Part shown: positions 8,764 to 60,718 of the stretch, one piece after another
How the letters are laid out: each line of letters begins with the position of its first letter
Numbering within the stretch: the stretch's first letter is position 1
Assembly (NCBI GenBank): GCA_023664265.1
Contig: JAMPFV010000002.1
Span: 27,223-91,222, forward strand
Direction: 5' to 3'
Source of the DNA: Roseburia sp.
GTDB lineage: Bacteria > Bacillota > Clostridia > Lachnospirales > Lachnospiraceae
Length of the DNA: 64,000 bases
Made by a program: the position numbers and the translations under genes
Notes under the pieces: generated by a model
Seen by the model: only the letters and a program-made list of their open reading frames with translations
Told to the model about the DNA's origin: nothing
Databases searched by the model: none

Positions 8764-11071
8764 AATGGGAAATATATTGCAGGGTATAAAGGATGATTAT
8801 CTGTTTGCAATTGTTTTAATATCAGAGTTGTTGGTACTGGGGTCGCTTGTGTTTTCTCTATTTTCTTCGCCCAAGACGCTTGAATTAACTCCGGCAGATT
8901 TCGGCGTTGAGAATGCCGGACTTGTTTTTGAACCTGATTCGCCGGAGGCCTCCATGGTATCGCGGGAGCTGGAGCTGACCTCCGGCGCCTATGAGGTGTC
9001 GGTTTGTTATTCCCTGCAAGGGGATATACCTGAAAATGTTACGGATATAGTGGGGCGCATAGAGCTGGATTCCGCGGGAAGCGCTGCCGCTCTGAAGGCG
9101 GGAACAATAACTCTGAATGCCGGTAAGGAATGCCGGACAAGCACCATATGGATTGGTTATGGAGCCAAGCCGGAGGACTTAAAGGTATATGTTCAATATG
9201 CCGGAAAGGGGCGCCTGGAAATCCGGAGCATGGTATTTAGAGAGATACCGTTATACCGGTTTACAAGGCTGACAGGCTTTTTATTGCTGTTTTTGCTGGC
9301 AGATGGTCTTTATATTGTATTTTTCACGAGAATCACAAATATTTCCTCCGATAAGAAAGCAAAGCTGTTGTTTTTTGCGGGTATGCTGACGGCATCAAGC
9401 CTTCCGATTTTTTGCAATAACATTTATTATGGGCATGATATTGACTTTCATATGAATCGCATTGTTTCAATCGCAAAAGAACTCTCATACGGCCATTTTC
9501 CGGTTCGGATTCATTCGGATATGCTGAACGGCTATGGGTATGCAACCTCCCTGTTCTACGGAGACACGATGCTGTATATACCGGCACTGTTATATATGGC
9601 CAAGGTTCCGCTGGGACAGTGCTGGCAGCTGTATATTCTGATAAACAATGCATTGACGATTATTTTTTCATATGCCTGCTTTAAAGAGATGGTAAAAAAA
9701 GAAAAATATGCGTTGGTGGGTGTCTTTTTGTATGTACTTGCGCCATATCGGTTGATTAACATATATACAAGAGCTGCAGTAGGGGAATTTACGGCGATGA
9801 CTTTTTTCCCTCTGGTTGCCTTGGGTTTTTGGAATATTTATACCAAGGAGGCTGCGAAGCTGAGGGATTATTTGCCGGCAGCCATTGGATTGTCCGGAGT
9901 TGTGCAAAGTCATGTGATATCGACGGAAATGGCGGCAATATTTATCGGGATGGCTTGCATCGTCAATCTGCGCCGAACGATAAAGCCGGGAATTCTTTGG
10001 TGCTTGACCAAGACCGCAGTTTTGACAGCGCTGTTGAGCGCTTGGTTTTTGGTGCCGATGTTGGATTCCATGAGTATGGATATTAATGTAACAGGGAGGA
10101 TGGGAAGAATACAGGAGCAGGGATTGTATCCCGTTCAGCTTGCAAGTCTGTTCTTTTCAGGAGTCGGTAAATCGTTAAAAAACACGACACAGGAAGAAAT
10201 GGGGTTTTCATTGGGGCCGGCGCTATGTATCGGCATAGTATTGGCACTGTGCGTATATGCAGACTATAAAATGAAAAGGATACATAATGTACTTGAAAAG
10301 GGTGTGGCGATATGTTTGGGAATGGGAATAATTGCGTTACTGTTTGCAAGCAGAATTTTCCCATGGGATACGTTGGCGTGCAGAAGTAATGCAGTTGCGA
10401 AATATTTATGTATGATACAGTACCCTTGGCGGTATCTTGCAATTGCAACGCTGATGATTTCAATAGCTTCGGCGGGGGCCTTATCAATTTTACGGGAAAG
10501 CTTGGGGACAACCAAGGTGAAAGCGATAGTATGTGCAATGGTTCTGCTTTGTATGATAAGCACGGGATATTATTATTATCATTTTACATATGAGAGCAAT
10601 ATGCTTACGGTAGTATCGGAGACGGATTGTAACCAATTTTATATCGGAGATGAGGAGTATTTATTAAAAGGAACCGAGACAGAATTGTTACAAATAAGAA
10701 ATGTAAAGCATGCTGCCAATGTGGAGGTGGCGGAATTAAAGCGGACAGAGGGGAATTACACATATATTTGTCAAAATAAAAGCGAGATGGAACAAGAGAT
10801 TCTATTGCCGATTCTGAACTATGAGCATTATGTGGTGAAGGACATTGAAAAGGGGGTTATATTTGACATTGAAAACGGTGAAAATAACTGTATGGCTGTT
10901 TTGCTCCCACCTCAATATGAAGGCGAGATAACGGTGTTATATCAGGAAAGAATGATATGGAGATTATGTGAGGCGATATCCCTTATGACTGTGGCGGCTT
11001 TGGCGATTATGGGGATGCGAAAATTTAAGCGTATTCGATTGAAGGGGAGGCATTTGCATGAAAAAGCGTGA
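8741..11071 (+). CDS. Large GT-C fold membrane glycosyltransferase (YfhO / PTPS-related-like)
   Basis: 776 aa. GHDIDFHMNRIVSIAKELSYGHFPVR (a D-x2-FH-x2-R block) followed by more than 10 TM segments and a C-terminal soluble domain. GC content is lower than in flanking genes. Confidence 0.55.
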   Translation: MQEMKTRKMGNILQGIKDDYLFAIVLISELLVLGSLVFSLFSSPKTLELTPADFGVENAGLVFEPDSPEASMVSRELELTSGAYEVSVCYSLQGDIPENVTDIVGRIELDSAGSAAALKAGTITLNAGKECRTSTIWIGYGAKPEDLKVYVQYAGKGRLEIRSMVFREIPLYRFTRLTGFLLLFLLADGLYIVFFTRITNISSDKKAKLLFFAGMLTASSLPIFCNNIYYGHDIDFHMNRIVSIAKELSYGHFPVRIHSDMLNGYGYATSLFYGDTMLYIPALLYMAKVPLGQCWQLYILINNALTIIFSYACFKEMVKKEKYALVGVFLYVLAPYRLINIYTRAAVGEFTAMTFFPLVALGFWNIYTKEAAKLRDYLPAAIGLSGVVQSHVISTEMAAIFIGMACIVNLRRTIKPGILWCLTKTAVLTALLSAWFLVPMLDSMSMDINVTGRMGRIQEQGLYPVQLASLFFSGVGKSLKNTTQEEMGFSLGPALCIGIVLALCVYADYKMKRIHNVLEKGVAICLGMGIIALLFASRIFPWDTLACRSNAVAKYLCMIQYPWRYLAIATLMISIASAGALSILRESLGTTKVKAIVCAMVLLCMISTGYYYYHFTYESNMLTVVSETDCNQFYIGDEEYLLKGTETELLQIRNVKHAANVEVAELKRTEGNYTYICQNKSEMEQEILLPILNYEHYVVKDIEKGVIFDIENGENNCMAVLLPPQYEGEITVLYQERMIWRLCEAISLMTVAALAIMGMRKFKRIRLKGRHLHEKA

Positions 11072-12761
11072 AAAAGCGTGTTTAAGCATAATCCTTTTCA
11101 TAATTTTATGTGTGAATATCCGCTTTTTGGAAATGAAAAGCGGATATTATGTTGACGAGGGCATGACGCTGTTTCTGGCGAATGGGCACTATAACGGTGC
11201 AGTTACCTCAAGATCGGAATATGGAATTGACGCTTTTATCAGAACTTATATAGTGAAGGAAGGAAGCAATCCGATTCAGGCAGTGCAGAATGTTTGGGGA
11301 ATGCTGAATGAATTGCTTCATGCAGGAAACTATAGTGTGGAGGGAACCGTTAAATGGTATGACGATGCCAGACGTATGCTTCAGGGGAATACGGAATGGG
11401 TATCGGGGGATGCGCTGCTTCGGGAAATGGTGGCGGATAAGGGAGAGCGCTTTCAATATACACAGGTTTATTTGAATCAGGCCATGGATGTTCATCCCTG
11501 CTTTTACTATATTCTGGTGCATACGGTGTTTTCCGTGTTTGCGGGAATTTATTCTGACGCCTTCCTGTTTGGCATTAATATGATATTTCTGCTGATGACC
11601 TGTCTTGTCATATATTGTATGGTGAAGGAATGTATGGAGGACGAGATTGCGGCCTTTCTTGCAGTGGTTTTGTTTGGTTTCAGTCAGGGCTTTGCGTCCT
11701 GCGCCGTATATTTCCGGATGTATGCGGTATTGACATTCTTTGTCGTGATGACGCTGTATCTCCATTTAAAGCTTTGGGGGACAGAACGGGAGTCGATTGG
11801 CAGAGGACGGAAGATTGCAATGGGAGCCACGGTGTTATTGGGCTTTAACACACATTACTATTATATCTTATTCCTGTTTCCGCTTTTCCTGCTGACCTGT
11901 ATACGACTGAAGAAAAAAAGAGCCTTGTGCAGGAGCTATATTAAGTGTATGATAGCAACAGGGCTTATCAGTCTGATAATATGGCCCTTTTCGGTATATC
12001 ATATTTTCTTTGGATATCGAGGGACAGAGGCGGTGTCAAATGTTTTTGCGGATGGTCTGCTAAAGCATCTGTATGCTTATGCGGAAGAATTTGGGAAAGC
12101 GTTTTTTTCGGGGAACGCAGGGATAGGAATTATTCTGCTGTCCGCCGCTGTAATATTTTGCCTGATGGTATGGCGCAAGAGACGGTCGGACAAAGGACTT
12201 ATAATGGGAATGCTTGTACCGGGCGTTGTTTATTTTGTGTTTATCGCACAGATAGCGCCGGTGGTATCGGATCGATATATTATGTGCCTGTTTCCATATG
12301 TGGCGGTTCTTATGGCAATAACGATATCCGGCATTATCGGCAGACTGTGTAAGGCGCGCGGGCGGATAATTGTTGCGTTGGTTTTGGGAGTGGTTTATGC
12401 AGCGATTGGTTTTTCCTTGAATGTACCGAATTATTTATATTTGGAGCAGAGGGGAAAGGAGTTGGCGCTTTATGAGGACAAAAAGGCCTATAATTGTGTG
12501 ATGCTTGGATTTGACCACGGGCAGGGATTTCCCGTAGCACGTAAGCTTTCTGAATTTGGACAGGTCATAGTGGCAGGGCAACAGGAAATTGACAATATAA
12601 CGTCCCCCGGGCATACGGATGCGGGAACGGTGGTTTATGTGTATGAGGGATTGGAGCTTTCGAAGTGCTTGGAAGAATTGGAGAAGAATATAGGCTTGGG
12701 TACGGATTATGCAGAGTTGGAGAGCGATATAGAGAGCTTCAGAGCCTTTTTGTATAAATAA
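11058..12761 (+). CDS. GT-C fold membrane glycosyltransferase (ArnT/PMT, GT39/83-like)
   Basis: 567 aa. Early loop YYVDEGMTLF and DVHPCFYYILVH (compare the D.HPPLYY signature of PMT_2-type proteins). Polytopic. Confidence 0.6.
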   Translation: MKKREKACLSIILFIILCVNIRFLEMKSGYYVDEGMTLFLANGHYNGAVTSRSEYGIDAFIRTYIVKEGSNPIQAVQNVWGMLNELLHAGNYSVEGTVKWYDDARRMLQGNTEWVSGDALLREMVADKGERFQYTQVYLNQAMDVHPCFYYILVHTVFSVFAGIYSDAFLFGINMIFLLMTCLVIYCMVKECMEDEIAAFLAVVLFGFSQGFASCAVYFRMYAVLTFFVVMTLYLHLKLWGTERESIGRGRKIAMGATVLLGFNTHYYYILFLFPLFLLTCIRLKKKRALCRSYIKCMIATGLISLIIWPFSVYHIFFGYRGTEAVSNVFADGLLKHLYAYAEEFGKAFFSGNAGIGIILLSAAVIFCLMVWRKRRSDKGLIMGMLVPGVVYFVFIAQIAPVVSDRYIMCLFPYVAVLMAITISGIIGRLCKARGRIIVALVLGVVYAAIGFSLNVPNYLYLEQRGKELALYEDKKAYNCVMLGFDHGQGFPVARKLSEFGQVIVAGQQEIDNITSPGHTDAGTVVYVYEGLELSKCLEELEKNIGLGTDYAELESDIESFRAFLYK

Positions 12762-27130: not shown

Positions 27131-27461
27131 CCGCTTTATGCTGTGTATGCTGCTCTCGGTGACGATAGCTGCCGTCTCGCAGATCTTATTAAAAAAAAGC
27201 GCGCTGCGCCGGTATTCCTCCGCCCTGCGTGAATATCTGAATCCTTATGTGATTGGCGGTTACGGGCTTCTTTTTCTCTCCATGCTTCTGACGGTATATG
27301 CTTATAGCGGGATGGATTACAAGAACGGGCCGGTGATAGAGTCGCTGGGAAATGTGCTGGTGCTTCTTCTGAGCTTTGTCTTTTTCCGGGAGCGGATAAG
27401 CGCGAGAAAGCTGCTCGGAATCGCGTTCATTATGGCGGGAACGCTGGTATTTTATGCATAG
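27123..27461 (+). CDS. Small 4-TM DMT/SMR-like transporter subunit (ArnE-like)
   Basis: 112 aa. Overlaps the previous gene by 8 nt. Ends LLGIAFIMAGTLVFY. Paired small subunits are typical of ArnE/ArnF-type lipid-linked sugar flippases. Confidence 0.6.
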   Translation: MLNRFMLCMLLSVTIAAVSQILLKKSALRRYSSALREYLNPYVIGGYGLLFLSMLLTVYAYSGMDYKNGPVIESLGNVLVLLLSFVFFRERISARKLLGIAFIMAGTLVFYA

Positions 27462-27689
27462 CGTTCCATATATTGTATGCAATCTGAGGGTTGAGATAAT
27501 GCATAAAGTCCGGTATGATTGATACTGTCGAACCGAGCGGCTGTCCCGGGGCGTCAATGGCACTGATATATAGATTGAAAAATAAGCCTGACAGCTCATT
27601 TTTTAATCTGATGGCAGCCTCTTTGCGACAAGTTGCTCAGAAATGGAGATTAATATGGAAGAGGAGGAAGTCGGAAGGACAGAAATCAT

Positions 27690-30600
27690 ATGAAAAAAAG
27701 AAAAGCATTTGGATTGTACGGCACGAATAAGAGAAAAACAGCCAAGAGAGCTGATAAGTATACAGAGGAATTTTACGAGACCTATGAGGAAGCCGATTAC
27801 GCGGAGGAAGAGTTTGCCGAGGAGTATGCGGACGGGGAATACGGCTGCGAGGAAACCGTCTATACAGAATCGGGCTATGCGGAGGAGTTTACGGATGAGT
27901 ACGCGGACGGGGAATACGAGGGCGTAACGTTTGCGGATGACGACTGTGAGGAGGAATATGAAGGCGCCGTCGATACGGACTCTGATTATTATACGGAATC
28001 GGGCTATGCGGAGGAGTTTGCCGATGAGTACGCGGACGGAGAGTACGAGGGCGTAACGTTTGCGGACGACGACTGTGAGGAGGAATATGAAGGCGCCGTC
28101 GATACAGAACCGTATACGGACGCATTATATGAAAATGCTGATGATACAGGCTCTGATTATTATACGGAAACCGGCGGCGCGGAGGAGTATGCCGAAGGGT
28201 ATACGGACGGAGCATATGAGGACACGGGAGATACCCAAGAACTCTCGGGGGAATACGCATCCGAGGAATGCATACCCGAGGAATACGCATCTGAGGAATA
28301 CATACCCGAGGAATACGCATCTGAGGAATACATACCCGAGGAATATGCATCTGAGGAATACATACCCGAGGAATATGCATCTGAGGAATACATACCCGAG
28401 GAATATGCATCTGAAGAATACGTATCTGAGGAATATGAATCCGGAGAGTACACACAGAATGCTTATGCGGAGGAGGTTTCCGGGACCGGTGGAGCGTATA
28501 CGGACGACTATGAGGACGGATATGACGGTATGGACGATGAGACCGGTTATGAAAATGAGACCGGTTATGGAAATGAGACCGGCTATGAGAATGCGTATGA
28601 GGACGCTGAGAATTCCTTTGAGACGGCTTACGGGGATTCGGACGCGCCGGATATGTATGACATGTACGAGGAGGATGAGGTGGCGTTCGGCCCGGAGCTG
28701 CGTGGCGGCTTTGGCGAGCGGCTGAGGGAGTGGTTTTCCAATATGACCGCGTTTGACGTTATCCTTGCGTCCACGGGGGTTCTGCTTCTTGTGGCGGTTG
28801 CGGTGGCCGGCAGCATGTATTTGGAGACAAAGCGGGTGAATGAACGGATTGAGGCGCTTGTGCCGATGGGAGAGGAGCTTGCGGAAATCGGCATCGTCGG
28901 GGAGGATGGTCTGGTGGCCATGACGAACTCGGCGTTGTCCGGACAGTTCGCGGCGGAGCTTGAGAGCGAGACGGTTTCCTCCATCGTTGACGCGGGGGAA
29001 GAGAGCAATGCGCCTGAGGCCGTAAGCGATAAGGTGAATGTGAATTTTACCTCCGTGGAGAAAGATTTGAAAATCCGTTTCACGGATGCGAACACCGGCG
29101 AGCTGATTACGGGCACAGCGTTCGAGGTGGTGCTGACCAACGCAAAGGGAAAGAAGCTGGTGCTTACGGATGATGATATGGACGGCATCATCTATGCGCA
29201 GAATGTGAACCCGGGGAAGTTTGACGTGGTAATCACATCCACCGACAAATATAAGTTCCCCACGCTTGCGCAGCAGGTTACCGTAAAGGATAAGGTCGAG
29301 TACGTCGTTATCCGCGACGTGCAGGATGAGGTTAAGAAGGAATCTCAGGTGAATGTGGCGGCTGAGGATACGCAGAAGCAGGATGCGCAGAAGGAGGAGG
29401 AGCAGATTACGGATACCGTGGAGTGGGTGGAGTCCACTCAGACGCTGCTCAGCGGCACGGAGTCGTATCTGGCCGTCGATAAGAACACCATAGAGGATCC
29501 CTCCAAGACGGCGCGGGCGGCGGCGCGTATGCTGTTTGACACCCTGAACGTGACGCTTGACAAGACGGAGCTGTCCCTCACGGTCGGAAGCAGCGCGGAT
29601 TTGGCCGGGACGAAATTTACCGATTCGACAGAGGGCGATATCACGTATAAATATAAGACGGAGTGGAAATCCTCTAATGAGAGCGTTGCGACGGTAAGCG
29701 ATGGGAAGGTTACCGCGAAATCGGCGGGAACCGCGGAGATCACATACACCGTGACGAGAACGACAATCACGACCGTGACGGAGGAGGGGACACCCAAAAC
29801 AAGCACGGAAACGGAAGAGAAGACCATGTCCGAGGCCGAATTTGAGACATACAAAAAGGAGATAGAGGGTAAATCGGACGCGGAGTATCAGGTTACGGTG
29901 GAGAGCAAGGAGGCCGTGTCCGGTGAAGGAAGCGGGGAAACCGCTGACAGCGGCGCTGAAACAGCTTCCGGAGAGACAAGGTACAAATACAGGATAACCA
30001 TCACGAAGACGGAAAAGGGCGAGAGCACGACCTCCACGAAGGAAACCACCGATACCGGAAGCGCAAAATGCAAGGTTACGGTGGAGGCGGCGAAGATCAC
30101 CTCCGCCGCTCTGGAGCTTTCCAAGAGCGCGGAAAGCTGCAGTGTGGGCGGCACCCTTACGGTAAAGCCGTCAAAGCTTGTATATACCAAGGAGAATGGC
30201 ACCAAGGAGGAGGCCGCAAGTTTCCCGACCGTGACATGGAGCAGCTCGGATAAGGCGGTTGCGACCGTGGACGCGAACGGTGTGGTTACGGGCGTGAAGG
30301 AAGGAAAGGTGACGATTACCGCGACGATTTCCGGCGTCAAGGGCGCGGGGGGCAAGGAAATCCCCATCAGCGCCACGACCACGGTGACCGTCAGCGCGGC
30401 GCCCGCCCTTACCCTCAAGCTTGACCGGACGGAGGACGTTTCTCTCAACGTGGGCGGACAGACAACTCTGGTCGCTACGGTGACCAATTATAAGAGCGAT
30501 GCCGGAGTCGTCTGGGAGACCTCGGACAAGAAGATTGCAACCGTGAGCGAGGCGGGCGTTGTGACGGGCGTTGCCCCGGGAAAGGCGACGATTACCGCCA

Positions 30601-31547
30601 CCACCAAGGAGAAGGGCGCGGACGGGAATCCGTTAAAGGCAACCTGTGTCGTCACGGTAAATTCCAACGCGGCTTCGGACACGACGACAAAGCTCAAGGA
30701 TAAGAACGGCAACCAGATTTATGTCAGGGACGGCGGCAACGGCTATAAGGAGGCTGTCTATGCGGACTACTTTACCGCGTCGGAGTTCTTTATCCGGACG
30801 GAGGGGCAGTACGCCTACACAGGATGGCAGACAATCGGCGGAAAGCGGTATTATTATGACAAGAACGGCAACGCCGTGACCGGTACGCAGGTTATTCAGG
30901 GTGTCACCTACAACTTTGATTCCACAGGCGCGATTGCGACCTCGGTAAACGGAACGACGTTCGGCATTGACATTTCAAGGCATAACGGAAATATCGACTG
31001 GAACGCGGTAAAGGCCTCCGGCGTGGACTATGTGATTATCCGCTGCGGCTACCGCGGCTCTGCGACCGGCGTGCTGATTGAGGACGAGAGCTTCAAGAAG
31101 AATATCAAGGGCGCTACCGCGGCAGGCTTAAAGGTGGGAATCTATGTATTCTCGCAGGCGGTGGACGAGGTGGAGGCCGTGAAGGAGGCTTCCCTTGCGG
31201 TGAGCCTTGCCAAGGGCTATAACCTCACCTATCCGATTTTCATTGACACTGAGTCCAGCGGCGGAAGAGCTGACAAGATTGACACCGCGACCAGAACGGC
31301 AGTTGTCAACGCTTTCTGTCAGACGGTTGCGAGCGCCGGATATCAGCCGGGAATCTATGCGTCGAAGACATGGTTTGAGACGAAGCTCAACATGGGCGCA
31401 ATCGGCAATTACCGGATATGGCTGGCACAGTACGCCGCCGCGCCGAGCTACAAGGGCAGATACGATATGTGGCAGTATTCCAGCAAGGGAACCATCAGCG
31501 GGATCAGCGGAAAGGTGGACTTAAATTTGAGCTATCTCGGATATTAA
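27690..31547 (+). CDS. Membrane-anchored multidomain GH25 muramidase with a long acidic repetitive N-terminal tail
   Basis: 1285 aa. Residues 1 to about 350 are E/Y/D-rich repeats. A single TM (FDVILASTGVLLLVAVAVAGSMYL) follows. Three Big_2-like modules (VTAKSAGTAEITYTV, VTGVKEGKVTITATI, VTGVAPGKATITATT). Cell-wall-binding repeats (GWQTIGGKRYYYDKNGNAVTG). GH25 block FGIDISRHNGNIDW ... IFIDTES. Confidence 0.85.
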   Translation: MKKRKAFGLYGTNKRKTAKRADKYTEEFYETYEEADYAEEEFAEEYADGEYGCEETVYTESGYAEEFTDEYADGEYEGVTFADDDCEEEYEGAVDTDSDYYTESGYAEEFADEYADGEYEGVTFADDDCEEEYEGAVDTEPYTDALYENADDTGSDYYTETGGAEEYAEGYTDGAYEDTGDTQELSGEYASEECIPEEYASEEYIPEEYASEEYIPEEYASEEYIPEEYASEEYIPEEYASEEYVSEEYESGEYTQNAYAEEVSGTGGAYTDDYEDGYDGMDDETGYENETGYGNETGYENAYEDAENSFETAYGDSDAPDMYDMYEEDEVAFGPELRGGFGERLREWFSNMTAFDVILASTGVLLLVAVAVAGSMYLETKRVNERIEALVPMGEELAEIGIVGEDGLVAMTNSALSGQFAAELESETVSSIVDAGEESNAPEAVSDKVNVNFTSVEKDLKIRFTDANTGELITGTAFEVVLTNAKGKKLVLTDDDMDGIIYAQNVNPGKFDVVITSTDKYKFPTLAQQVTVKDKVEYVVIRDVQDEVKKESQVNVAAEDTQKQDAQKEEEQITDTVEWVESTQTLLSGTESYLAVDKNTIEDPSKTARAAARMLFDTLNVTLDKTELSLTVGSSADLAGTKFTDSTEGDITYKYKTEWKSSNESVATVSDGKVTAKSAGTAEITYTVTRTTITTVTEEGTPKTSTETEEKTMSEAEFETYKKEIEGKSDAEYQVTVESKEAVSGEGSGETADSGAETASGETRYKYRITITKTEKGESTTSTKETTDTGSAKCKVTVEAAKITSAALELSKSAESCSVGGTLTVKPSKLVYTKENGTKEEAASFPTVTWSSSDKAVATVDANGVVTGVKEGKVTITATISGVKGAGGKEIPISATTTVTVSAAPALTLKLDRTEDVSLNVGGQTTLVATVTNYKSDAGVVWETSDKKIATVSEAGVVTGVAPGKATITATTKEKGADGNPLKATCVVTVNSNAASDTTTKLKDKNGNQIYVRDGGNGYKEAVYADYFTASEFFIRTEGQYAYTGWQTIGGKRYYYDKNGNAVTGTQVIQGVTYNFDSTGAIATSVNGTTFGIDISRHNGNIDWNAVKASGVDYVIIRCGYRGSATGVLIEDESFKKNIKGATAAGLKVGIYVFSQAVDEVEAVKEASLAVSLAKGYNLTYPIFIDTESSGGRADKIDTATRTAVVNAFCQTVASAGYQPGIYASKTWFETKLNMGAIGNYRIWLAQYAAAPSYKGRYDMWQYSSKGTISGISGKVDLNLSYLGY
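27861..28106. repeat. 129-bp (43-codon) tandem repeat, two near-identical copies, with a degenerate third start near 28160
   Basis: 27861-27989 and 27990 onward both encode YTESGYAEEF.DEYADGEYEGVTFADDDCEEEYEGAVDT. Confidence 0.9.
28251..28430. repeat. 30-bp tandem repeat x6 encoding EYASEEYIPE
   Basis: Six consecutive 30-nt units (gaatacgcatctgaggaatacatacccgag and variants), read directly. A partial seventh unit follows. Confidence 0.95.
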
Positions 31548-32844: not shown

Positions 32845-33714
32845 ATGAAAGGTATTATTTTAGCGGGAGGGTCGGGCACCCGTCTCTATCCGCTGACAAA
32901 GGCGATTTCCAAACAGATTATGCCGGTCTATGACAAGCCGATGATATATTATCCGCTCTCGACGCTGATGCTTGCGGGAATCCGGGATATTCTGATCATC
33001 TCGACCCCGAGGGACCTCCCGATATTCAGGGAGCTTTTCGGGACGGGGGAGCAGTTGGGGCTTCATATGGAGTACGCGGTTCAGGAGCAGCCCAGAGGGC
33101 TTGCGGACGCGTTTATCATCGGCGCGGAGTTTATCGGCGGCGATTCGGCGGCGCTGGTGCTCGGGGACAATATCTTCTACGGGCAGAGCTTTTCCAAGCT
33201 GCTGCAGCGGGTGGCGCAGAAGGAGAGCGGCGCGACGATTTTCGGATACTATGTCAGAGACCCCAGAGAGTACGGCGTGGTGGAGTTTGATGAGAACGGG
33301 AAGGCCATTTCCATCGAGGAGAAGCCGGAGCATCCCAAGAGCAACTACGCGGTGCCGGGACTTTATTTCTACGACAATGATGTGGTGGAGATTGCGAGGA
33401 ATGTGAAGCCGTCCGCGCGGGGCGAGATTGAGATTACGAGCATCAACAACGAGTATCTCTGTCGGGGGACGCTCACCGTCGAGACGATGGGGCGCGGCTT
33501 TGCGTGGCTGGATACGGGGAATCACGATTCCCTTTTGGACGCGGCGGATTTCGTGTGCGCGTTCCAGAAGCGGCAGGGGCTGTACATCTCCTGCATTGAG
33601 GAGATTGCGTATAAGAGAGGCTTTATCACAAGGGAGCAGCTTCTGAAGCTGGCGGAGCCCTTGATGAAGACGGAGTACGGAAAATATTTGGTAGAGGTTG
33701 CGAATGGACTCTAA
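32845..33714 (+). CDS. rfbA: Glucose-1-phosphate thymidylyltransferase
   Basis: [24 protein letters not shown] and LGDNIFYG. 289 aa. Confidence 0.95.
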
Positions 33715-35017
33715 GGGAAAGAGAATAGGCATTCTGCTTGTATTGCTGGCGGTGATGCTCGTGATGGCGGCATTGGTGGTTGTGAATTTCAGCCGGCTGA
33801 AGGGTCGTCCGCGGCAGCCTGTTCAGGAACAGAATACACAGGATTATACAGGGCGCACGATCGAGGCTGACGGCAGAGTCAGGGGCGCGGATTTGTCGGC
33901 GTTTCTGCGGGATGAGGAGTTCTTCGACGAGGTCACCGACGGCGGCGACGGTCTGCTTCAGGCTGCATATGATGAGGTGGATGAGAATGGGGAGCTTGTC
34001 CGGACGCTGACCTTGCTGGTAAGCTCCGTGGAGCGGGATATCCGCGTGAAGATTGTGGACGATAAGGGTGAGGTGGTGTCCGGTCAGGCGTTCGCGGTTC
34101 AGGTTGCGGACACGGGGGCTTACATCGACGAGGACAGGGACGGAATCATTCATATCTCCGGTATCAAGCCGGGGCAGTATCAGGTATCCCTCTCCGCGAT
34201 TGAGGGCTTTGCGGTTCCCGAGGAGCCGGCCAATGTCCGGGTGAAGTCCATTGTATCCTACACGGTGATTGACGATATCGAATACTTTGTCCATTCCGAA
34301 TCCGAGGTGGATATCCTGAAGGAGGATGCGGAGCGCGGTCACGGCGAGCTGGACGAGGAGGACGAGGACGACACGCAGTACACGGCGCTTCTGGATATGG
34401 AGGGGCGGGATAACGCGGTTGCGCTCGGCATTGACGTCTCCAAGTGGAACGGGGAGATTGACTGGGACATCGTGAAAGCTGAGGGCGTTGACTTTGCGAT
34501 TATCCGCTGCGGCTACCGCGGTTCTTCCTCCGGATGGCTGGTGGAGGATCCGTATTTCTACAAAAACATTGAGGGCGCAAGGTCGGCCGGCATCAAGGTC
34601 GGCATCTACTTCTTTACGCAGGCGGTCAGCCAAGTGGAGGCGGTGGAGGAGGCCAGTATGGTCATCTCGCTGTTGGGGGATGTCGAGCCGGATTATCCGA
34701 TTTTTATTGACACGGAGGGCGCGGGCGGCAGCGGGCGCGCTGATACGCTGGATGTCGCGACAAGGACGGCGGTTGTCAACGCTTTCTGTCAGACCATTCA
34801 GAACGCGGGACTGGAGGCCGGCGTCTATGCGAGCAGGAATTGGTATTACAATAATCTGGCGCTGGATGAGACCTACAGCCATAAGATCTGGCTTGCGGAA
34901 TATCGTCAGACGCCCGAGTATACGGGAAGATATGACATGTGGCAGTACACCTCCGGAGGCTCGGTGGCCGGCATTGAGGGGCGCGTTGATCTGAATGTCA
35001 GCTATTTGGGCTATTAG
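33704..35017 (+). CDS. Membrane-anchored GH25 muramidase, short paralog of 27690-31547
   Basis: N-terminal [22 protein letters not shown]. Prealbumin-like module ([22 protein letters not shown]...[12 protein letters not shown]). GH25 block [14 protein letters not shown] ... IFIDTEG. Ends [12 protein letters not shown] versus GKVDLNLSYLGY in the large paralog. Starts at ATG 33704 or TTG 33698 and overlaps the rfbA stop. Confidence 0.85.
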
Positions 35018-53347: not shown

Positions 53348-54829
53348 ATGAAGGATAATAATCAGGAAAACTCAAATGTCAGAAGAAATTCTGCGAATCG
53401 GGAGCCTGTGAGACGCGATGGGAGAAGAACAGCGGGAAACGCAAGTGGGCAGACCCCACGGCCAAGGCAGGGGACACAACAGGCACGACAGTCGAGACAG
53501 TCGCAGCCGTCGCGCCAGGGAGCAGCGGCGCAGGGCAGACCACGCACGGCCGCGGGCGCACAGGCGTATCAGACCCGTCCGGAGGGGCTGGCAAGACAGC
53601 CGCGTCAGGCGGGAGAACCGCAACGCAGGAGACCGCAGACGGCAGGCAGCGGGACGGGGAAGAGAACCGCTCCGCCCAAGAGAGGAAAAAATAAAAGCAA
53701 GAATACAAGAAATCTTACACCGAAGCAGGCCGCGCGAAAGAAGCGGAACAAGATTTTACTGTTTATCTCGGAAATATTCCTGCTTCTGATACTGGTGGTC
53801 GTCTTCTGGGGCTTTCAGAAAGCGAGCAAGATTAAGGTCATTACCATTGATGATGCGGATGTACAGATCAGTGAGGAGGTAAAAGTGCAGGAGGAGACCG
53901 GAGCCATGAAGGGCTACCGCAATATTGCCCTCTTTGGCGTCGATTCTCGGGATAAGCAGCTCGACAAGGCGACCCGGACGGATGTCATTATGATTGCCTC
54001 CATCAATCTTGATACCAAGGAGGTCCGGCTGGTGTCCGTCTATCGTGACACATGGCTGAATCTGGGCACTGACACCTATAACAAGGCCAATGCAGCCTAC
54101 TCCAAGGGCGGACCGCAGCAGGCGCTCAGTATGCTGAACATGAATCTGGATATGAATATCACGGATTTTGTGACCGTGGGCTTTGAGGGACTGGTAGACG
54201 TCATCAACGCGGTCGGCGGGATTGAGATTGACGTGAAAGAGAACGAGATAGCCCATCTCAACAGCTATCAGGTCAGCATGTGCGGGAAACCGGACGGAAC
54301 TCTGAACTCGAATGGCGAGCCGAATTATGTGCCGGACCCGAACAATTCTTTATATAAGCATTACAAGCCGGTGGAGCATGCGGGTCTTCAGACGCTCAAC
54401 GGCCTTCAGGCGACAGCGTACTGCCGCATCCGCTATGTCGGGGATGACTTCCAGCGTACCGTGCGGCAGAGAACGGTATTGGAGAAGACGGCCAGAAAGG
54501 CGATGACGCTCAATCCCGCAACCCTGAATGAGATTGCGAACGCGGTCTTCCCGGAGATTGCGACCTCCCTTGACTTTGCGGAGATTGTATCGCTGCTCGC
54601 AGATATCGGCAGCTATGATATCGGCCCTACTGCAGGCTTCCCGTTTGAGGACAGTGTACAGACAGGACGTGTCGGCAAGGCCAGCGTTGTCATACCGGTT
54701 GATTTGGAGAAGAATGTCATCGCGCTGCACAAATTCCTCTTTGACGAGGATTGGACGCCGTCGGAGACCGTCAAAAAGTGCAGCCGGAAGATTGTATCGG
54801 ATACCGGTGTCAGCGCAGCAAGTCAATAA
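53348..54829 (+). CDS. LytR-CpsA-Psr (LCP) family glycopolymer ligase with a long basic N-terminal tail
   Basis: About 130 aa of R/Q/P/G-rich sequence, then a TM (ILLFISEIFLLLILVVVFWGF), then NIALFGVDSRD...RTDVIMIASIN...LVSVYRDTW. Confidence 0.85.
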   Translation: MKDNNQENSNVRRNSANREPVRRDGRRTAGNASGQTPRPRQGTQQARQSRQSQPSRQGAAAQGRPRTAAGAQAYQTRPEGLARQPRQAGEPQRRRPQTAGSGTGKRTAPPKRGKNKSKNTRNLTPKQAARKKRNKILLFISEIFLLLILVVVFWGFQKASKIKVITIDDADVQISEEVKVQEETGAMKGYRNIALFGVDSRDKQLDKATRTDVIMIASINLDTKEVRLVSVYRDTWLNLGTDTYNKANAAYSKGGPQQALSMLNMNLDMNITDFVTVGFEGLVDVINAVGGIEIDVKENEIAHLNSYQVSMCGKPDGTLNSNGEPNYVPDPNNSLYKHYKPVEHAGLQTLNGLQATAYCRIRYVGDDFQRTVRQRTVLEKTARKAMTLNPATLNEIANAVFPEIATSLDFAEIVSLLADIGSYDIGPTAGFPFEDSVQTGRVGKASVVIPVDLEKNVIALHKFLFDEDWTPSETVKKCSRKIVSDTGVSAASQ

Positions 54830-59107: not shown

Positions 59108-60718
59108 ATGGTTGGGAATATGATGGACAACAATGAAGATTTTGAAATGATAGACATTGCTGACGAGGAGGACAACGACGGGGAGAGCGCGTCGGAGACA
59201 AAGCAGCCGGGAGCGCCGTCCGCGGATGAGGAGACGGACAAGGAGAAGGAGAGCGATTACGAGGATGTGTGCTTTATCTGCCGGCGGCCCGAGAGCAAGG
59301 CGGGGAAAATGTTCAAGCTGCCCAATCACATCTCCGTCTGCTCGGACTGTATGCACAAGACGATGGATACCGTCAGCCAGTTTGATTATCAGGGAATGCT
59401 GAACCATACCATCAATCCGGACGACGAGACCGGAAAGGATGGGAAGCGGCGATTCCCCAATATCAGCTTTGTGAATATTGCGGATCTGCAGGGGGACGGC
59501 GGCATTCCGAACCGCCAGAAGCTCAAGCGCAAGAAGCCCAAGGAGAAGAGCCGGGAGGCGGTATTTAACATCAACAATCTGCCCGCGCCGCACAGGATTA
59601 AGGGACAGTTGGACGATTTTGTGGTGGGGCAGGAGCACGCGAAGAAGGTCATCTCGGTGGCGGTGTACAACCACTATAAGCGGGTGACGACCGGAACGAT
59701 GGACGATATCGAGATCGAGAAGTCGAATATTTTATTGCTGGGGCCGACGGGCTGCGGCAAGACCTACATGGTAAAGACACTGGCAAGGCTGCTGGATGTG
59801 CCGCTTGCCATCGCGGACGCGACCTCGCTGACGGAGGCGGGCTATATCGGGGACGATATCGAATCCGTCATCTCCAAGCTGCTGGCCGCGGCGGACAACG
59901 ACGTGGAGAAGGCGGAGCGCGGGATCGTCTTTATCGATGAGATTGACAAGATTGCGAAGAAGAAGAACACGACCTCGCGGGACGTCAGCGGGGAATCCGT
60001 GCAGCAGGGAATGCTCAAGCTCCTTGAGGGCGCGGATGTGGAGGTTCCTGTGGGGGCCAACAGCAAGAACGCGATGGTGCCGCTGACCACGGTGAACACG
60101 CGGAACATATTGTTCATCTGCGGCGGCGCGTTTCCGGATCTGGACGAGATTATCAAGCAGCGGCTGACGAAGCAGTCCTCCATCGGCTTTAACGCGGAGC
60201 TCAAGGACAGATTTGACAAGGAGCCGAATATCCTGAGCAGGGTGACGGTCGAGGATATCAAGAAGTTTGGCATGATACCGGAGTTTATCGGGCGGCTTCC
60301 GATCATATGCCCGATGGACGGCCTGACCAAGGAGAGCTATGTCAAGATACTGCGGGAGCCCAAGAACGCGATTTTGAAGCAGTACCAGAAGCTTCTGGAG
60401 CTGGACGAGGTAAAGCTCATATTTGACGACAGCGCGCTGGAAGCGATTGCGGAAAAGGCGTTGGAGCGCGAGACGGGCGCCCGCGCGCTGCGCGCCATTA
60501 TCGAGGAGTTTATGCTGGATATCATGTATGAGATCCCCAAGGATGACAATATCGGAGAGGTGACGATCACCGGCGATTACATCAACGGAACCGGAGGCCC
60601 CGTGATTGAGATACGCACAGAGAAGGTACATGCCAAGGCGCCTGCGGCTATCGAGGAGAAGCGGGAGCCTGTGGCTGAGAGACCGAAGGTGGAGGAGCAT
60701 AATTTTTATGAATTTTAG
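59108..60718 (+). CDS. clpX: ClpX-type AAA+ unfoldase with N-terminal, linker and C-terminal extensions
   Basis: Zinc ribbon CFIC...CSDC, Walker A GPTGCGKT, Walker B IVFIDEIDK and IGF loop SSIGFNA. At 536 aa it looks longer than ClpX proteins I recall. Confidence 0.85.
   Translation: MVGNMMDNNEDFEMIDIADEEDNDGESASETKQPGAPSADEETDKEKESDYEDVCFICRRPESKAGKMFKLPNHISVCSDCMHKTMDTVSQFDYQGMLNHTINPDDETGKDGKRRFPNISFVNIADLQGDGGIPNRQKLKRKKPKEKSREAVFNINNLPAPHRIKGQLDDFVVGQEHAKKVISVAVYNHYKRVTTGTMDDIEIEKSNILLLGPTGCGKTYMVKTLARLLDVPLAIADATSLTEAGYIGDDIESVISKLLAAADNDVEKAERGIVFIDEIDKIAKKKNTTSRDVSGESVQQGMLKLLEGADVEVPVGANSKNAMVPLTTVNTRNILFICGGAFPDLDEIIKQRLTKQSSIGFNAELKDRFDKEPNILSRVTVEDIKKFGMIPEFIGRLPIICPMDGLTKESYVKILREPKNAILKQYQKLLELDEVKLIFDDSALEAIAEKALERETGARALRAIIEEFMLDIMYEIPKDDNIGEVTITGDYINGTGGPVIEIRTEKVHAKAPAAIEEKREPVAERPKVEEHNFYEF

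Follow-up and report, generated by a model that had tools for sequence, protein, structure and literature searches.

How Gram-positive bacteria restrain and position the enzymes that cut their own cell walls is a long-standing question. The controls known so far either act outside the cell, through wall polymers and disordered regions that are glycosylated, or rely on short docking peptides in the cytoplasm. A gene in a 64,000-nucleotide stretch of a Roseburia sp. genome (GenBank assembly GCA_023664265.1, contig JAMPFV010000002.1, positions 27,223 to 91,222; hereafter the window, numbered from its first nucleotide) bears on this question, and its family would add another device, in which an extracellular muramidase carries, on its cytoplasmic side, a long polyanionic tail that evolves through repeats. 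The open reading frame (ORF) at 27690–31547 (+) encodes a protein of 1285 residues that, by its domain matches, is a member of the GH25 muramidase family and a predicted enzyme. As laid out from the ORF, Pfam matches and homologue searches, it consists of an N-terminal tail of about 350 residues, a single transmembrane (TM) helix, an Ig-like stalk, wall-binding repeats and the GH25 domain. Is the tail translated, on which side of the membrane does it lie, and what might it do there?

Composition, repeats and reading frame of the tail

The acidic, Tyr-rich core of the tail (residues 24–340; 27759–28709, +) is marked by its composition, its Tyr spacing and its predicted local distance difference test (pLDDT) scores in an AlphaFold model. 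Residues 25–340 contain 26% Glu, 15% Tyr, 11% Asp, 10% Ala, 10% Gly and 8% Thr, together 80%, and carry a net charge of −117, with 118 Asp or Glu among the 316 residues; the corresponding figures for the tail are 37% Asp/Glu, 15% Tyr, 8% Thr and 5% Ser. The original prediction had described the tail as almost purely composed of these six residue types, which captures the bias and slightly overstates its extent. Lys, Arg and His are absent from a 300-residue core, and among aromatic residues the core strongly prefers Tyr (47, against eight Phe and no Trp). Most of these Tyr residues are flanked by Glu or Asp.

Relatives were gathered by scanning species-representative genomes with an alignment of the stalk domain (A4), which confirmed at least 493 stretches; the locus comparisons use the best 80 of these, and the ORF scans cover 83 related loci containing 2,879 ORFs. 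In the window protein, 21 of the 47 Tyr-Tyr gaps are exactly five residues. Gaps of five account for 23.3% of the total across 51 acidic tails taken from the genome loci, as compared with 7.7% in shuffled sequences, and gaps of two or three are depleted (5.8% vs 23%); overall, the share of five-residue gaps is 23–28%, where about 8% is expected. The five-residue period led to consideration of a pentapeptide-repeat beta-helix, which was rejected: there was no Pentapeptide match in Pfam and there are no strands in the structural model, and the position two before Tyr is mostly Glu or Asp rather than a small residue. An AlphaFold2 model built on an alignment of 24 sequences gave pLDDT values of 33–49 and no secondary structure over residues 1–330, and the tail matched nothing in Pfam, NCBIfam or the PDB. 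The tail is thus predicted to be an intrinsically disordered region that keeps its composition while its sequence and length drift. Among the 2,879 ORFs, acidic, Tyr-rich and Lys/Arg-poor segments of 80 residues are confined to this gene family, in which they occur in 63 ORFs and in five pieces split off by frameshifts.

The tail is encoded by tandem repeats. Tandem Repeats Finder (TRF) recovered all three nested arrays of the original prediction: a 129-bp (43-residue) repeat present in 1.9 copies with 94% matches (27861–28105, +), a 30-bp (10-residue, EEYASEEYIP) repeat in 6.4 copies with 95% matches (28250–28441, +), and an 18-bp (6-residue, NETGYE) repeat in 3.2 copies encoding (D/N)ETGY(E/G) (28537–28593, +). 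All three are in-frame. Over their first 39 codons, the two 129-bp copies differ by five synonymous codons and one non-synonymous codon. Within the 30-bp array, units 2 and 3 are identical, as are units 4 and 5, and the two pairs are separated by a single synonymous T/C difference. The nearest relative (P0002) is 86% identical over the ectodomain and 47% identical over the tail core, and it lacks the EYASEEYIPE array altogether, which fits the recent expansion that had been proposed from the near-identity of the units; the arrays are likewise lineage-specific elsewhere in the family, with periods of 5, 7, 10, 12, 14, 15, 17, 22, 24 and further numbers of residues. When TRF was applied to 71 distinct tail DNAs from the genome loci, 301 of the 302 repeat arrays had a period divisible by 3, 15 bp being the commonest. 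A look for public sequencing runs turned up no RNA run; the one run that holds the region has short-read contigs that break inside the 129-bp and 30-bp arrays. At five of the 83 related loci (L008, L014, L024, L043 and L058) a frameshift within the repeats splits the tail into a separate ORF; these could be errors in metagenome-assembled genomes or genuine disruptions. Taken together, the sequence comparisons show a tail that changes as in-frame tandem repeats are gained and lost, and selection that keeps Glu/Asp, a Tyr at about every fifth residue, the absence of Lys and Arg, and some short motif islands.

Past the upstream stop, the first start codon of the ORF is ATG 27690. It is preceded by a string resembling a ribosome-binding site (RBS), GGAAGGA at 27673–27679 (27673–27692 with the ATG, +), located 10 nt 5' of the ATG, and further upstream by a promoter-like TTGAGA-17-TATGAT (27491–27519, +), which is a consensus match from a scan and lies in a block kept in the close relative L001. 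Rfam returned no match over 27300–28900. The protein begins with a polybasic aromatic motif, MKKRKAFGLYGTNKRKTAKRADK (27690–27758, +), which has ten Lys or Arg and one Asp or Glu and is conserved at the N-terminus across the close family; over 100 homologues open with MKKxKTFGLYGTNKRK, the full-length tailed proteins share an initial MKK(R/K)KTFGLYGTNKRK, and the conserved MKKxK starts at the same Met. The motif is limited to this gene among the 2,879 ORFs. Could the gene nevertheless start near the TM helix, with 27690–28680 as non-coding repeats, or could the tail be exported? A start at GTG codon 331 does follow a Shine-Dalgarno-like GAGGAGG, further reading frames are open across the repeats, and the frameshifts at the five loci separate the tail from the rest of the gene. 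Strings of this kind are, however, an unavoidable consequence of GAG GAG codons, and the GTG start was ruled out by the conserved N-terminal motif, the open frame and the repeat periods. More generally, a start downstream of the repeats, which would have overturned the original prediction, is not credible because more than 100 homologues keep the same N-terminal motif and reading frame with an open acidic tail, because all but one of the repeat periods are divisible by 3, and because the 129-bp copies differ mostly at synonymous positions; the promoter-like block and the RBS 5' of 27690 also speak against it. Export fares no better, since a 350-residue tail lacking a signal sequence has no known route, and an outward N-terminus would leave GH25 in the cytoplasm. 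We regard an annotation artefact or an exported tail as extremely improbable; on comparative grounds the tail is a coding region and 27690 is the true start.

As the original prediction held, the protein is without a signal peptide: its N-terminal 23 residues read as non-hydrophobic and polybasic. Hydropathy analysis gives one hydrophobic segment only (19-residue windows starting at 349–363; segment at about 354–378), very near the residue 355 proposed before. It corresponds to a single TM helix at residues 354–378 (28749–28823, +) beginning MTAFD(A/V)ILASTGV, for which AlphaFold predicts a helix with pLDDT of about 80. Columns at the start of this helix are more than 90% conserved among homologues, and D63, T69 and G70 of the anchor alignment (A2) are invariant. 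The AlphaFold2 model places helices at residues 341–350, 354–399 and 405–421, the first of which, ERLREWFSNM (28710–28739, +; consensus FWQRIKDRLRHM), bears the membrane-proximal basic residues. Because the tail precedes the sole TM helix, and the domains that must face outward are GH25, Big_2 and the wall-binding repeats, we infer that the tail is cytoplasmic and that the protein is a single-pass type II protein with N-in/C-out topology, as had been argued from the domain order. The window protein has three Lys or Arg on each side of the helix and hence no charge bias. Across the family the mean is 2.5 before the helix and 1.67 after it; the count before the helix exceeds that after it in 59% of members and falls below it in 14%, and this positive-inside lean agrees weakly with an inside N-terminus. 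The hydrophobic core is followed by the consensus ..VILSMFLQSK, and AVAVAGS is found solely in the subclade of the window protein; inspection of the alignments by eye revealed no conserved signal-peptidase-like site after the TM helix.

The family, its motif islands and its locus

A full-length search returned at least 120 Lachnospiraceae proteins of 1070–1370 residues, and each full-length one among them has a pre-TM tail of 170–470 residues, with a net charge of −50 to −171 and 8–19% Tyr. A profile of the anchor region recovered 178 clusters at 50% identity. All full-length matches to this profile have GH25 as well as the stalk, which makes the anchor and tail specific to this muramidase family. 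Most tails in these clusters are acidic (−20 to −122), and a minority are net basic (+5 to +30), rich in Lys, Pro and Ala and almost free of Tyr; Tyr is at 0–5% in many distant members and at 0–2% in several lineages. Searching with the tail only (residues 1–380) gave just two fragments, probably owing to the biased composition of the tail, and is uninformative about its occurrence on other ectodomains. Among the matches listed in the genome scan, named genomes are nearly all Lachnospiraceae (Roseburia, Agathobacter, Acetatifactor, Anaerostipes, Waltera, Suilimivivens and the strains A4, COE1 and IMSAGC_011). The tailed family is thus one of Lachnospiraceae that are abundant in the gut. A tail of this kind had been called non-standard for autolysins. 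That is correct with respect to characterised autolysins, whereas within its own family the tail is the rule, being present in more than 100 homologues, most of the 178 clusters and most of the 80 loci.

Short motif islands are located at both ends of the tail and within it, amid the drifting repeats. The first is the polybasic, aromatic N-terminus itself, and it is followed by the acidic-aromatic YTEEFYETYEE (27759–27791, +), with the family consensus (T/A)D(E/K)Y(T/I)E(E/D)FYEE in alignments. Another, ENSFETAYGD at residues 307–316 (28608–28637, +), corresponds to the aligned consensus (E/D)DSF(D/E)TAYGD, whose columns hold the consensus residue in roughly 60–90% of 120 homologues. DEDEYIVxYSSE and (E/D)DYAEDTESYYE occur in many relatives, and the last island is the basic pre-TM helix joined to the conserved TM start.

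The gene lies in a block with the order Bac_transf, WecG/TagA, YdjC, GDSL, DUF6077, an unknown gene, two EamA, tailed GH25, RmlB, RmlA, small GH25, RmlC, Wzm, Wzt, methyltransferase and GT2 genes, and the order of the genes around the tailed GH25 is identical in distant relatives. RmlB and RmlA are directly 3' of it, and the window also contains Wzm/Wzt, glycosyltransferases, WecG/TagA, two Bac_transf genes and an LCP gene. Gene content and order thus assign the tailed GH25 to a rhamnose cell-wall-polysaccharide locus that is conserved in Lachnospiraceae. In nearly all of the 80 loci a small, tail-less GH25 of about 436 residues follows about 2 kb downstream, after RmlB and RmlA.

A motif resembling part of some distant tails was observed in other proteins. 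Single-pass proteins of 363–417 residues, encoded at L053:1552–2712 (−), L058:3720–4934 (−), L061:11503–12594 (−), L068:11516–12769 (−), L075:11451–12614 (−) and L076:11431–12558 (−), have a short basic N-terminus, an IPD(I/L)(E/D)II DLD motif and an acidic stretch before the TM helix; their ectodomain is weakly GDSL/SGNH-like (E 0.003, under the cut-off). A motif of the form D-hydrophobic-(D/E)-hydrophobic-hydrophobic-(D/N)-L-D is also found at residues 11–29 of distant tailed-GH25 members, and all 12 regular-expression matches to the D-hydrophobic-(D/E)-...-L-D pattern in the 2,879 ORFs fall within the first 60 residues. These occurrences suggest a common cytoplasmic N-terminal motif on different wall enzymes. 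Within the window, a ClpX-like AAA+ ATPase of 536 residues (59108–60718, +), with a weak ClpX zinc finger at residues 54–89, has a 53-residue acidic N-terminal extension containing EDFEMIDIADEED, which fits this motif. In 66 distinct metagenome relatives of this ATPase the extension is variable and acidic, often with a looser DF(x)(I/F)(I/R)(E/V/D) motif in it, and only one of the 66 matches the strict pattern; its resemblance to the GH25-tail motif may be chance.

What the tail may do

We give about an even chance to the tail being a flexible, polyanionic, disordered cytoplasmic tether with docking motifs. Such a tether would present short motifs to cytoplasmic or membrane-proximal partners, candidates being the machinery for polysaccharide synthesis and export, the tails of other wall enzymes, and the division or elongation apparatus. 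Its evenly spaced Tyr residues could provide weak multivalent contacts, and its negative charge would keep the chain extended and off the anionic membrane, with the outcome that the cell would control from within where an extracellular wall-cutting enzyme sits or how active it is. If the tail does dock to partners, it would offer an experimental way into the coupling of wall hydrolysis and polysaccharide attachment to the state of the cytoplasm, in organisms whose wall biology is hardly known. Several observations weigh against this. The tail is net basic and nearly Tyr-free at seven of the 80 loci (L051, L059, L060, L062, L063, L069 and L071) and in several clusters, so negative charge and Tyr are not essential to the family as a whole, as would fit a generic spacer; a length that ranges over 170–470 residues argues against a precise ruler; the islands come from low-complexity alignments, in which apparent conservation can be inflated; and the positive-inside signal is weak in the window protein itself.

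The main rival to a docking tether is a generic spacer or entropic bristle with no specific partner, which would limit crowding, space the enzymes or keep them off the nucleoid and ribosomes, or would simply be a tolerated repeat expansion. Variable length and the reversal of charge in some lineages favour it, as do the persistence of disorder and repetitiveness while sequence and charge sign vary, and the lack of a predicted fold. The conserved islands at both ends and inside the tail, the strict absence of Lys and Arg from the core, the regular Tyr spacing and the highly conserved TM start instead suggest more than bulk, and we consider a spacer unlikely; even a mere spacer would be a clear example from nature of a sequence selected for its composition and the spacing of its aromatic residues, not for its exact order. 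A specific partner had been proposed in the LCP protein encoded at 53348–54829 (+), and the basic tail attributed to this protein is indeed present: it comprises 132 pre-TM residues with a net charge of +27 and 18% Arg, and 98% of 119 LCP orthologues, drawn from lineages other than those with basic GH25 tails, have tails above +10 (median 121 residues and +22), often with QQPRQ-type repeats. Binding of the acidic, Tyr-rich tail to this Arg/Gln/Pro-rich tail, possibly as a membrane-tethered Tyr-Arg cluster or coacervate, would co-localise the attachment of polysaccharide to N-acetylmuramic acid (MurNAc) with glycan cleavage. Both genes lie within one conserved wall-polysaccharide region, evenly spaced Tyr and Arg are the classic sticker pair of phase-separating disordered regions, and the idea gains some weight from the conservation of the basic LCP tail. 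The two charges are nevertheless unequal (about −108 vs +27), some 22 kb lie between the two genes, none of the 83 loci has an LCP gene within 10 kb of the muramidase, some lineages have basic GH25 tails, and LCP proteins with long basic tails are widespread in Gram-positive bacteria without this muramidase. Opposite-charge pairing is accordingly rated as rather unlikely. The fuller proposal, in which the two extracellular wall enzymes of the locus, whose tails are both kept throughout Lachnospiraceae, would be joined by charge and Tyr-Arg contacts between their disordered tails into a membrane-tethered cluster that couples ligation and strand-cutting sites from inside, is distinctly unlikely; if tail pairing were true, complementary disordered tails would constitute an inside-out organising principle for Gram-positive wall enzymes.

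Two further roles for the tail concern its side chains. As a multi-Tyr phospho-acceptor, also put forward in the original prediction, it would be phosphorylated at EEY-type sites by a bacterial tyrosine kinase that thereby switches the muramidase on or off. The 47 mostly Glu/Asp-flanked Tyr residues of the core and their excess over Phe and Trp speak for such a substrate, and acidic Glu/Tyr polymers are generic substrates of tyrosine kinases. Kinase, Wzz and phosphatase domains were, however, absent from the 44 scanned ORFs of the window, Tyr falls to 0–2% in several lineages of the same family, some of the tails being positive, and phosphates would alter the charge of the chain, about −110 to begin with, only modestly; we judge this role quite improbable. 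A sink for cations or polyamines, in which the carboxylate- and phenol-rich chain would bind Mg2+, Ca2+, Fe3+ or polyamines near the membrane, would make use of an extreme carboxylate density. It leaves the conserved motifs and the regular Tyr spacing unexplained, does not accommodate the basic-tail lineages, and would assign the task to a single membrane protein that is small beside ribosomes and nucleic acids. It is very improbable.

How does a docking tether compare with known systems? The closest characterised analogue of the tailed GH25 is EpaU, a GH25 autolysin encoded in the EPA rhamnopolysaccharide locus of E. faecalis, whose wall-binding domain was shown to bind the polymer and whose disordered N-terminal region is Ser/Thr-rich, extracellular and probably O-glycosylated (PMC13343894). 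The two share a GH25 domain encoded within a rhamnose wall-polysaccharide cluster, a wall-binding domain and a long disordered N-terminal region. EpaU is ordered as disordered region, GH25 and wall-binding domain, and the word 'transmembrane' does not occur in the text of the paper (PMC13343894). In the tailed muramidase, by contrast, the disordered region is rich in Glu, Asp and Tyr and stands ahead of the only TM helix, hence probably in the cytoplasm, and an Ig-like stalk of about 700 residues separates the helix from a C-terminal GH25, some 740 residues from the tail. The tailed GH25 may therefore be described as an EpaU-like locus autolysin by predicted function, not by the nature or placement of its disordered region. 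In B. subtilis, RsgI and PBP1 have extracytoplasmic disordered regions (PMC9732909), and streptococcal membrane proteins have glycosylated Ser/Thr-rich ones (PMC12041528). These regions are likewise disordered, on single-pass envelope proteins and tied to wall homeostasis, but they lie outside the membrane, where they sense or traverse the wall, whereas the muramidase tail is probably inside, polyanionic and Tyr-periodic.

Docking from the cytoplasm has precedents among other wall proteins. GpsB docks the cytoplasmic mini-domains of penicillin-binding proteins (PBP1 or PBPA1 with GpsB), LCP proteins contact MreB, and organisers of the DivIVA type also serve as docking sites for wall enzymes. 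There too a short cytoplasmic N-terminal motif positions an enzyme that acts outside, but those tails are 10–40 residues long and basic, whereas the muramidase tail has about 350 residues and is basic at its extreme N-terminus only. E. coli FtsY has a polybasic N-terminal membrane-targeting sequence followed by an acidic A domain. The muramidase resembles it in having a polybasic aromatic N-terminal peptide and then a long Glu/Asp-rich disordered region at the inner membrane face; FtsY differs in being a GTPase, either soluble or peripheral, that lacks a TM helix and an ectodomain and whose acidic domain is not Tyr-periodic, and the two have no sequence relationship. S. pneumoniae LytC, phage Cpl-1 and Clostridium Lyc likewise combine GH25 with choline-binding-type repeats; to our knowledge these are secreted or released by phage and have neither a TM anchor nor a cytoplasmic tail. 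Prion-like sticker-and-spacer regions share regular aromatic spacing, which in the muramidase appears as the strong depletion of Tyr gaps of two and three, but they are polar and uncharged (Gly, Ser, Gln, Asn), whereas the muramidase tail is about 37% acidic and tethered to the membrane; at a net charge of about −110, homotypic condensation of the tail is unlikely. The literature searched contained no account of a peptidoglycan hydrolase with an acidic, disordered tail in the cytoplasm.

Ectodomain and neighbouring sequences

Beyond the TM helix, a conserved extracellular juxtamembrane segment, IEALVPMGEELAEIGIVGEDGLVAMTNSALSG (28848–28943, +), is seen in homologue alignments. It is followed by an Ig/prealbumin-like stalk domain at residues 449–561 (29034–29372, +), conserved across the family and including SVEKDLKIRF, DDDMDGIIY and VTVKDKVEY. 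The best of three Big_2 Ig-like domains is at 30435–30623 (+; Pfam PF02368, E 3.4e-23), and choline-binding-type wall-binding repeats (Choline_bind_3; residues 1044–1084; 30819–30941, +) match Pfam PF19127 (E 7.7e-11) and, in the PDB, the repeats of C. difficile toxin A. The GH25 muramidase catalytic domain at residues 1093–1272 (30966–31505, +) matches Pfam PF01183 with 116.8 bits against a cut-off of 27, spanning profile positions 1–180 of 180; its best PDB match is 2ww5, a 1,4-beta-N-acetylmuramidase (E 1.8e-23). The sequence contains the GH25 motifs FGIDISRHNG (residues 1091–1100) and IFIDTES (residues 1183–1189). We take the Asp of G-I-D-x-S and the D-x-E motif to be the catalytic acidic residues of the predicted enzyme.

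The small second GH25 of the window, at 33698–35017 (+), has 439 residues, a short N-terminal anchor and no tail; its counterpart to the stalk is a weak match to SpaA. All gene-like ORFs analysed in the window are on the + strand, and most of the 44 scanned bear cell-envelope glycan domains. The domains include two Bac_transf (initiating transferases), two GtrII-like, DUF6020, DUF6077, several GT2/GT4, RmlA/B, Wzm/Wzt, acyltransferase, aminotransferase, GlmS and PGM.

Just 5' of the RBS lie two stretches, each about 40 nt long (27569–27608 and 27617–27662, +), that are strongly multi-copy in the one public run, a metagenome, that holds the region, with summed word depths of about 2400 and 1100 as compared with 13 for the gene. 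They are single copy in the window and absent from the fetched loci, and a search of the metagenome collection for an exact 27-mer found nothing; in the close relative L001, 27 nt of the stretch are missing. Dozens of short contigs end at these stretches and continue into unrelated sequence, and some copies have extra sequence between the two halves. The G+C fraction is 0.41–0.42 at 1–2000 and 10001–12000 of the window and about 0.54 elsewhere.

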